Positions 29,101 through 32,100 of a stretch of 64,000 nt of DNA are shown here, piece by piece. Source of the stretch: Escherichia coli O157:H7 (GTDB lineage Bacteria; Pseudomonadota; Gammaproteobacteria; Enterobacterales; Enterobacteriaceae). Location: assembly GCF_013167455.1 (NCBI RefSeq), contig NZ_CP038328.1; one strand, given 5' to 3'. The number at the start of each line of letters is the position of its first letter. Within the stretch, counting starts at the first letter, position 1. The position numbers were made by a program.

Positions 29101-32100
29101 GCGCGCGATCTCGGTGCCAGCAAGTTACAGACTTTTATCCGCATCATTATTCCACTGACGATGCCGGGGATTATTGCCGGATGTCTGCTGGTGATGCTGC
29201 CAGCGATGGGCCTGTTCTATGTGTCCGACCTGATGGGCGGTGCGAAAAACCTGCTGATCGGTAACGTCATCAAGGTACAGTTCCTCAATATTCGTGACTG
29301 GCCGTTTGGTGCAGCCACCAGCATTACGCTGACTATCGTAATGGGCCTGATGTTGCTGGTTTACTGGCGCGCTTCTCGTCTGCTGAATAAGAAGGCAACA
29401 GAAATAGATAATTAGTGCTTTATATTCAAAAGGTTAATAGGAAATTTGGCATGCTTTTTACTGTCTAGTAAACAGCATGCCTCTATCCATAAAATCAAAC
29501 AGTTGCAATCTAATTTTGGAGAACGTTTTTTCTTCTCCCTTTTAGCAAATCGCTATAAAAAAACAACAAATGGTATAAAAATGAGCAATCCTAATCCATG
29601 CATGACGGACTGGAGAAAGTATTCGCAAAAGTTAAAATCAACAGTCTGTTGGTTTTGAGATATAACTCTCTTTTCTAATATTGACACCTTGGCTTTGCTG
29701 GTTGTTAAAATTAGCTTGTTGATTAGTAGTATGGATAGAACTTACTCTGTTATTTATTTCTAAAAATGGAATTTATCAATGCTTCCTACATCGCAATTAC
29801 GACCGACCGGGACATTCTGCTCCTATTCCGCTGAAACATCAGCAGACATCAAAAGCGAAATCACACCAATTCAGATAGAAGAAGCGCGGGCCAGTGGTCG
29901 TTTATATATCAAAGATTGTGATATTGAGTATCTGCCACAGTTACCAAACGAAATAACATCAGTTACAATCGAAAACTGCAACAACCTGACAACCCTTACA
30001 GGATTGCCGGTTAATACACAAAACCTCTCCGTCATTAACTGTGAAAAATTACAAATCACAGACATGCCATCAACCGTAAAAAATCTACATATTGAATTAA
30101 CTGATTCACCATTTATACATTTCATATCTGAAGGCATCGAGTGCCTGACGGTTTGCCACTGCTATATATCTGGAGTGCCAGAGAGTGTCCGCTACCTTGA
30201 AATAAAAGGTAGCGCCACAGACAGCATAAAAAATGTTCCAAACGGGTTATCATCTCTCAGCATCAATAGCTATAACCCGGAGAATCAGGCCAGAATTGAC
30301 AACCTGATATCACCGTCACTGAAGACGCTATCGCTGACTGGATGTAGCAATATTATACTGCCGGAGAAACTTCCGGAGAGTGTGACATCGGTAACCATTC
30401 ATGCGGAGCAGAAAACCACGTGGAACATCGGTGTTGAAGGGATGCCTGATGGGCTGGATCTTGATTTACAAAATGTACTACTCTCTCCAGATGTAGTTAA
30501 AGCAAAAAACATCACCTTTCAGGGCAACGCTCTGGATGTGGCCTTACACTTTCGCGAGGGAGACATTGTCTATGGACTATCTTCACCCAGAGAAAAACTT
30601 GTCAACAGCATTAAACTAGTTAACGACTTTTCCAAAAAAGATATTATAACTCAGAATACGTTAACAAACGCAGTATGGGACCCCAGAACACCTCGCAAAT
30701 ATAAGCAAGATCCACTTATCAAAAGAGCATTAAATGAACACGAAAGAGGAATAAAATTTAAACAACACTTAAAGAATCACAATAATTATAATGTTACCAT
30801 GGCCGACCTTTCCGTATACAATCGCGACAAATTATGGGCAAAAACAAGCAAGGCCGGCCTAGAGTTTCAGACATTAACACGCAATAAAACGGTTATTTTT
30901 TGTGCGGATGAGCTTGTCAACTCACTCAAACTCATAGCTAACAAGTCAGAGGGCTATGGCCAGAGTATTACCGCCAGCGAATTACGATGGATTTACCGTA
31001 ATAAAGACAACAACCAAATAATGAAAAACATAAAATTTTATCTACATGGCAAAGAGATACCAGCAGAAAGAATATTAGATACACCAGAATGGAAAGACTA
31101 TCGACCAAAATACTCTGGTTCCACATATAAATATTCTTAATGATACCAACTTATAACGGAATAGCATAAAAACACTTTTCATGGAGCAAAGGAGAAAACA
31201 ATGCCATTTTCAATCAAAAACAGATTTTCAAGTTCACAAGTACATTACCCGGAAATATCCGGTCCCATAAAAGACAAGCCAGCGTCAAAGAACTGCATAC
31301 TTACATCAACAACATGTAATGTAGATAGCTATACAGTGTACCAAAAAAAAGCCTGTAGTTTTGACATGCGCCCACCCGGCGCAGGAGAAAGAACCCCAAA
31401 ACTAAAACTCTCAGTTACTGAGATGACATGGCTATCTAAAACTATAGAAACAGAGATACACAACACAAAAGAATAGCAACCACTTACCAGAGAACACAAA
31501 AAGCCACAGACCCGAAACACCTGACTGCAAGCAACCACCTCCACAGGAGGTGGTTTTACCATGAACTTCCTGTGTACTGACTTGTGTTCATAATAATATT
31601 TTTGTGTTTAAACTCAATAAAGTCACAAAAATGATTGTAATCATGCAATGTAGTAAAATTAAAATATTTGACCCTGTACACGATTCTGTGTAAATGCCTT
31701 TTCTCAGAAGTGACCGTCCAGGCGGTCACCGAACTCGATAATAAAGCGGCTCATTGCCATACGCCAGTCCCGCAGTGGCATCGTCCATTTCTGTGAAGCC
31801 GCCTGGATTGCCAGCCACACGACCTTTTTCACTGAGTCATCCGTCGGGAACACCTTGCGTTTTTTGATGGCATGCCGGATTACGCTGTTCAGCGACTCGA
31901 TGGCGTTGGTTGTGTAGATGACTAGACTGGCCCCCTGAATCTCCAGACAACCAGTATCACTTAAATAAGTGATAGTCTTAATACTAGTTTTTAGACTAGT
32001 CATTGGAGAACAGATGATTGATGTCTTAGGGCCGGAGAAACGCAGACGGCGTACCACACAGGAAAAGATCGCAATTGTTCAGCAGAGCTTTGAACCGGGG

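Follow-up and report, generated by a model that had tools for sequence, protein, structure and literature searches.

Phage 21 and the element e14 integrate in the 3' end of icd and supply a new end to its reading frame, so that the gene stays open, and both bring along a long homologous copy of this end with an almost unchanged protein sequence. The prophage Sp6 of Escherichia coli O157:H7 Sakai is said to have been described by Hayashi in 2001. Its insertion site has been given as potC/potB (PMC8190617), and its left, right and circular attP junctions were sequenced by Asadulghani et al. in 2009 (PMC2669165). Using PCR and sequencing, the same study showed that Sp6 excises spontaneously and circularises by recombination between attL and attR; with espN as the gene marked to track the prophage, an espN::cat derivative was transferred to K-12, where it integrated at the same locus (PMC2669165). 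A passage of PMC8065619 that cites Steyert et al. 2012 names potC as an insertion site of Stx phages.

We analysed a stretch of 64,000 nucleotides of an E. coli O157:H7 genome (contig NZ_CP038328.1), hereafter the window, in which the potABCD operon breaks off after potB. With a probability of roughly 95%, positions 29384-29395 are the attL of a lambdoid prophage of about 48.4 kb and of the Sakai Sp6 type, inserted between potB and potC through its integrase. The junction, the element and the displaced potC are already known, since Sp6 at potB/potC has been described before. The features on which this reading turns are:

27432..28568, + strand: potA, spermidine/putrescine ABC transporter ATPase and first gene of potABCD, host DNA (ORF; annotation in colinear genomes)
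28552..29415, + strand: chimeric potB (ORF; comparison with uninterrupted PotB)
29384..29395, + strand: attL core TGAATAAGAAGG (common to attB and attR; single copy in the window; match to the published Sp6 junction)
29384..29390, + strand: TGAATAA, probable 7-bp strand-exchange (overlap) region (polymorphism among O157/Sakai attL, attR and attP)
29396..29530, + strand: P' arm of the attachment site, holding the potB tail and stop (to 29415), a hairpin and a candidate arm-type Int site (alignment of three attL arms, fold, motif enrichment)
29514-29522, + strand: candidate arm-type Int site TTTTGGAGA (motif enrichment)

Upstream of potB the window holds roxA, pepT (- strand) and potA. Codons 1-281 of potB are host sequence, and aligned with the uninterrupted PotB of strain AS19 (locus L002) the protein differs only by T37A and in its tail, where ...LLNKK is followed by ATEIDN and a stop, as against ...RLLNKKVELE and a stop in the native form. 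The DNA at 29380-29420 reads CTGCTGAATAAGAAGGCAACAGAAATAGATAATTAGTGCTT, and the protein ends in ...RLLNKKATEIDN. Six phage codons and a stop replace the last four native codons, leaving potB six bases longer; the new tail begins at 29395 and, apart from that first base of its Ala codon, is phage-derived, being encoded by the first 20 nt of the P' arm. Position 29395 is also the last host position, the point up to which most of the 5,426 complete E. coli genomes match when window 28900-29900 is used as a megablast query (query position 496). The GC content is 0.511 in potB up to 29395 vs 0.311 in 29396-29778. Searching the entire 64-kb window by tblastn with PotC and PotD recovered neither gene, the sole match being potB's own paralogous permease segment. 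A sequence-only reading of this DNA had described a potB that runs normally through LLNKK and then stops after six foreign codons as the composition turns AT-rich, with no potC behind it and with a terminus supplied by a prophage, and each of these points stands.

The uninterrupted arrangement is frequent: 3,800 of the 5,426 complete genomes have a continuous potB-potC, while in about 1,625 (30%) the two genes are split at the core, and 412 carry the exact junction of the window together with espK. The junction is not a chance feature, since the genomes that are not uninterrupted are broken exactly at a 12-bp core. This core, TGAATAA(A/G)AAGG, has one variable position; it is found once in the empty site of AS19 (attB, L002 3485-3496), as TGAATAAAAAGG in many strains, and twice in the O157:H7 strain Z892 (locus L004, whose coordinates convert to those of the window by adding 28269), at L004 1115-1126, corresponding to window 29384-29395, and at L004 49549-49560. 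The empty site in AS19 (L002 3480-3515) reads CTGCTGAATAAAAAGGTGGAACTCGAATGATCGG, and there the potB stop TGA overlaps the potC ATG. The core spans the potB codons (L)NKK and ends 11 nt before that ATG, i.e. the site lies 12-23 nt upstream of the potC start. The earlier proposal that the prophage attaches at the potB/potC overlap is right insofar as the core sits within the 3' end of potB, but the 4-bp ATGA overlap itself falls outside it. AAGGTGG, the Shine-Dalgarno sequence of potC, extends across the right-hand boundary of the core and persists at attR; because the crossover lies upstream of the potC start, potC keeps its own Shine-Dalgarno sequence and start codon.

Our evidence for the far end comes from colinear O157:H7 genomes, the xis-int-attR-potC segment lying outside the window and being placed in the window's own strain by colinearity. 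Z892 is colinear with window 28270-64000 (99.757% identity over 35,757 bp, one gap). Its second core lies 48,434 bp downstream of the first, in the order xis, a 372-aa int, core, GTGGAACTCGAATG, intact potC and potD, and its PotC has the same accession, WP_000580316.1, as that of the uninterrupted strain. The matching repeat and potC, which the sequence-only reading had expected at the other prophage end beyond the window, are found there, and potC is displaced as proposed, not lost. For the strain studied here, colinearity predicts that the early region, xis, int and attR follow past the window end, with potC about 13.8 kb beyond it. The integrase (L004 48286-49404) matches PF09003 (lambda Arm-DNA-binding domain, E = 3.8e-21) and PF00589 (Phage_integrase, the tyrosine recombinase domain, E = 3.6e-18), and the match of the excisionase (L004 48048-48317) to PF07825 is marginal (23.2 bits, cut-off 23). 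That no mobile element is involved, and that the potB end is either an allelic variant or a scar left behind when potCD was lost by deletion or rearrangement, is scarcely credible: the absence of potC from the window, which is all that speaks for such an account, stands against the 12-bp direct repeat, the int/xis and phage structural genes, the intact potCD at the far end in colinear genomes, the empty site in 3,800 genomes and the experimentally shown excision (PMC2669165).

Another alternative accepts a true attL and supposes that recombination between similar prophages, through inversion, a compound prophage or internal deletion, has carried its original partner elsewhere, in which case no simple Sp6 end would lie at potC. 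Such events do occur: in UK O157 strains an inversion of 650 kb involving the potC prophage and a second prophage has been reported, as has a 47-kb deletion in a compound potC prophage (PMC10925052); strain PV15-279 has only a remnant of about 17 kb at this site, and the 25-kb prophage body of the window (39001-64000) has up to 28 related places per genome. We nevertheless consider a moved partner very unlikely here, as colinearity with Z892 extends, with a single gap, through the full 35.7 kb beyond potA, at least 80% of window 39001-64000 is present unbroken in 318 genomes, and in both PV15-279 and Z892, where the whole element was read, it ends at attR with xis, int and potC.

An attL of an Sp6-type prophage is also what the published sequences indicate. 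The Sp6 'R' junction equals window 29379-29400 and the 'L' junction L004 49544-49565, both exactly, after restoring one base that is absent from each 22-nt string in the supplement text. Five of the six published Sp6 primers, which include TTGCGAATACTTTCTCCAGTCC and GTCCATATCTAATCCATAGTCGGC (PMC2669165), match exactly in the window, in L004 or in both: the attP primers map to 29468-29493 and 29607-29628 of the window and to the P arm of L004, and the K-12 junction primer to 28551-28576. Sakai Sp6 and the prophage of the window share the junction, the attP and attR strings, the espN cargo and the potC/potB site, and agree in size, the Sakai junction coordinates 1541606 and 1590050 being 48,444 apart vs 48,434 bp between the Z892 cores. 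The window is not from Sakai itself, its island between phoQ and roxA measuring 11.2 kb vs 15.4 kb in Sakai/EDL933, and the best genome matches to the window are 99.7-99.8% identical; between the two prophages we see no difference in kind.

Using the reconstructed attP as query, we found no free-phage genome with a contiguous attP in the phage collection. In the two best hits, vB_EcoS-640R1 and vB_EcoS-813R8, the match breaks off at the core, and 640R1 is a prophage excerpt with host potC/potD, and the records of Stx1a phages are likewise prophage excerpts that start in potB. Because there is no independent attP, we took it from Fig S5 of PMC2669165. The GenBank record ON470612.1 (L005), 'Escherichia phage vB_EcoS-640R1, partial genome', has host potC and potD beside int and represents a prophage with its chromosomal flank, not a virion genome; records of this sort can mislead analyses of attachment sites or of host genes in phages.

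The point of exchange can be narrowed within the core. In O157 sequences core position 8 is G on the potB side (attL) and A on the potC side (attR), and the sequenced Sp6 attP has G (PMC2669165 Fig S5). A G shared by attL and attP with an A in attR places the exchange 5' of position 8; taken together with the base preceding the core, which is C in attB vs A in attP, this confines it to TGAATAA. Strand exchange probably takes place within this 7-bp segment, the size of a lambda-type overlap region, which in the reconstructed attP is flanked by a 5-bp inverted repeat, GCCTT/AAGGC. The predicted attP is CCTTA-TGAATAA-GAAGGCAACA, also written ...CCGCCTTATGAATAAGAAGGCAACAG..., and an exchange within TGAATAA predicts ...CTGCTGAATAAAAAGGTGGAAC... 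as the repaired attB. We dropped the A/G position as a general marker of phage vs host sequence, since empty attB sites with G and attR copies with G both exist; as A/G is also a natural polymorphism of attB and some attR carry G, the overlap argument is limited to the O157/Sakai triplet of sites.

In the mechanism we propose, the prophage's own lambda-type tyrosine integrase would recombine attP with attB in the last potB codons, the strands being exchanged within TGAATAA. To the right of the exchange on the potB side the DNA is then the phage P' arm, and potB ends in ATEIDN instead of VELE, while its final 14 nt come to lie at attR behind xis-int, some 48 kb away, along with the Shine-Dalgarno sequence and start codon of potC and the whole of potCD. 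The altered PotB would presumably still work, and potCD may be transcribed from the prophage side by transcription reading through int.

Whether the ATEIDN tail is more than what precedes the first in-frame stop leads us to a further alternative, according to which it is an evolved, functional PotB C-terminus, selected so that lysogens keep PotB function in the manner of icd with phage 21 and e14. Three P' arms encode similar acidic ends (ATEIDN, ATEIDD and VSEIDD), although outside this stretch the VL7S7 arm has diverged; VELE, the native end, is acidic too, and potB is otherwise intact. However, the new tail shares no homology with the native one, chance alone would put a stop within seven codons with a probability of about 0.38 given the base composition of the P' arm, and the conserved bases GAAATAGAT and CTTTATATTCAA adjoin the core, where core-type Int binding or IHF binding would conserve them regardless of coding. 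A search for the PotB C-terminus in the PotD-PotABC structure paper yielded nothing usable. On balance we regard a selected tail as rather unlikely, the alternative being that potB simply runs on to the first in-frame stop of the phage arm.

Across the 50-kb locus we counted five copies of the motif TTTTGGRGA, where 1.15 would be expected. Four of the five lie within 130 bp of the cores: the P arm has three, 48-80 bp ahead of the attR core, and the P' arm has the fourth. The motif is kept in arms that are otherwise diverged, and we propose its copies as candidate arm-type Int sites. A P arm of 144 bp between int and the attR core is predicted beyond the window end. A stable hairpin, GGCATGCTTTTTAC-TGTCTA-GTAAACAGCATGCC, lies in the P' arm at window 29448-29482, 33 nt after the new potB stop, and the 125-nt segment containing it folds at -28.3 kcal/mol (z = -3.0). 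A consensus scan found no intrinsic terminator after the new stop, and the hairpin, having no T run, is not a canonical one. Across the attP of the free phage it would come to stand downstream of int, where lambda has its sib/tI retroregulator; it could also stabilise or end the potAB transcript in lysogens.

Insertion between potB and potC severs potCD from the potA promoter and from translational coupling to potB. At attR, an ATG contributed by the P arm stands in the former potB frame directly before the core (L004 49548-49574), which results in an 8-codon ORF, MNKKVELE (ATG AAT AAA AAG GTG GAA CTC GAA TGA), whose stop overlaps the potC start and which is invariant in all seven attR sequences aligned. 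The interval between int and potC has no 9/12 match to a sigma-70 promoter, with four weak 8/12 matches at poor spacers, and no terminator is predicted between the two genes. It is conceivable, though quite doubtful, that in the roughly 30% of E. coli with an element here potCD expression would depend on read-out from xis-int, that polyamine uptake would track the state of the prophage, and that MNKKVELE might restore the coupling. A literature search on potCD expression in lysogens found no usable paper, and the papers searched do not address the physiological question of whether spermidine uptake changes when potAB and potCD are split, as they are in about 30% of complete E. coli genomes. 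For annotation, the insertion explains why potB is six bases longer and potC apparently missing in O157:H7 windows.

The DNA after 29395 is the end of a prophage, as the sequence-only reading had it, with effector genes next to the junction followed by tail, head, terminase and lysis genes according to colinear annotation:

29779..31140, + strand: espK, type III secretion effector, prophage cargo (ORF; annotation in colinear genomes)
32014..33242, + strand: IS2 (IS3 family) transposase in the effector locus (colinear annotation L004 3745-4973; ORFs)
33785..37186, - strand: espN, type III effector (ORF; annotation)
37777..40125, - strand: nleL, type III effector E3 ubiquitin ligase (ORF; annotation)
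40126..64000, - strand, running off the window: lambdoid prophage body with tail, head, portal, terminase and lysis genes (colinear annotation)

RefSeq annotates the L004 interval between the attachment sites with tail, tape measure, portal, capsid, terminase, holin/lysozyme, antiterminator, replication and repressor genes. The espK/espN/nleL cargo, which is that of Sakai Sp6, is in this way placed at the end of a mobile prophage that others showed to excise. Within window 31200-33630, IS2 is flanked by an nleB fragment and another transposase on one side and by a gogB-type fragment on the other. A short ORF at 33217-33408 ends in the last 49 residues of EspK bar one substitution, ...YRNKDN(N/S)QIMKNIKFYLHGKEIPAERILDTPEWKDYRPKYSGSTYKYS, and from this shared end we take it to be a duplicated 3' fragment of an espK-like gene. 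The potB/potC prophage of PV15-279, also O157:H7 (L001 20497-37770), retains espK, espN, nleL, some tail remnants, an exonuclease fragment, xis and int, which indicates that the effector cargo outlasts the loss of most phage genes.

A second integrated element, of about 11.2 kb, was observed between phoQ and roxA (window 13494-24719). It is flanked by imperfect direct repeats, GGACATATTT(T)AT(T)CA, at 13494-13509 and 24704-24719 on the - strand, the left of which overlaps the phoQ stop codon, and it carries an integrase:

23308-24558, - strand: P4-type integrase of the phoQ-roxA element

Colinear genomes annotate a RepA helicase, a major capsid protein, a head decoration protein and a small terminase in it. 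By position and repeats it corresponds to Sakai Sp7 (core in PMC2669165 Fig S5). Sp7 in turn is probably EcCIEDL933, a capsid-forming PICI of 15.4 kb, an equation made by size and gene content only. Being about 4 kb shorter, the element of the window is probably a deleted derivative.

The integration module at potB/potC recurs in genomes of unrelated origin. In each of the five other occupied genomes sampled (from human stool, pig ETEC, frog, seawater and one source unrecorded) we found the same excisionase, 372-aa integrase and P arm at 99% identity, and xis, int and the P arm of the GenBank prophage record L005 are also 99% identical. The potB-side ends differ between occupied genomes, for example in VL7S7, and the combination of one int, xis and P arm with differing other ends indicates that a single int/xis/attP module serves many lambdoid phages. 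The Stx1a phages LC744186-LC744193 have an identical core, a P' arm 95% identical and a potB tail ending in ATEIDD and a stop; they differ in carrying stx1a, whereas the part of the prophage within the window carries type III effectors and no annotated stx.

The system resembles Int/Xis/attP of lambda in an integrase with N-terminal arm-binding and tyrosine recombinase domains, in xis lying just upstream and int last before attR, and, as far as the attachment sequences indicate, in a short (7 bp) putative exchange region with inverted core-type flanks and repeated candidate arm-type sites in both arms. In DNA sequence, the integrase matches those of lambda and phage 21 at only about 75% identity over 143 nt. 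The Sp6-type target lies inside an operon, at the 3' end of one of its coding genes, vs the intergenic attB of lambda, and the layout of the candidate arm sites differs too, the P arm having three and the P' arm a single one. With phage 21 and e14 it shares insertion at the 3' end of a coding gene whose reading frame receives a phage-supplied end. Unlike these, however, the potB/potC element has only 12 bp in common with its target, its six new codons are unrelated to the four that they replace, and its insertion splits two translationally coupled genes of one operon.
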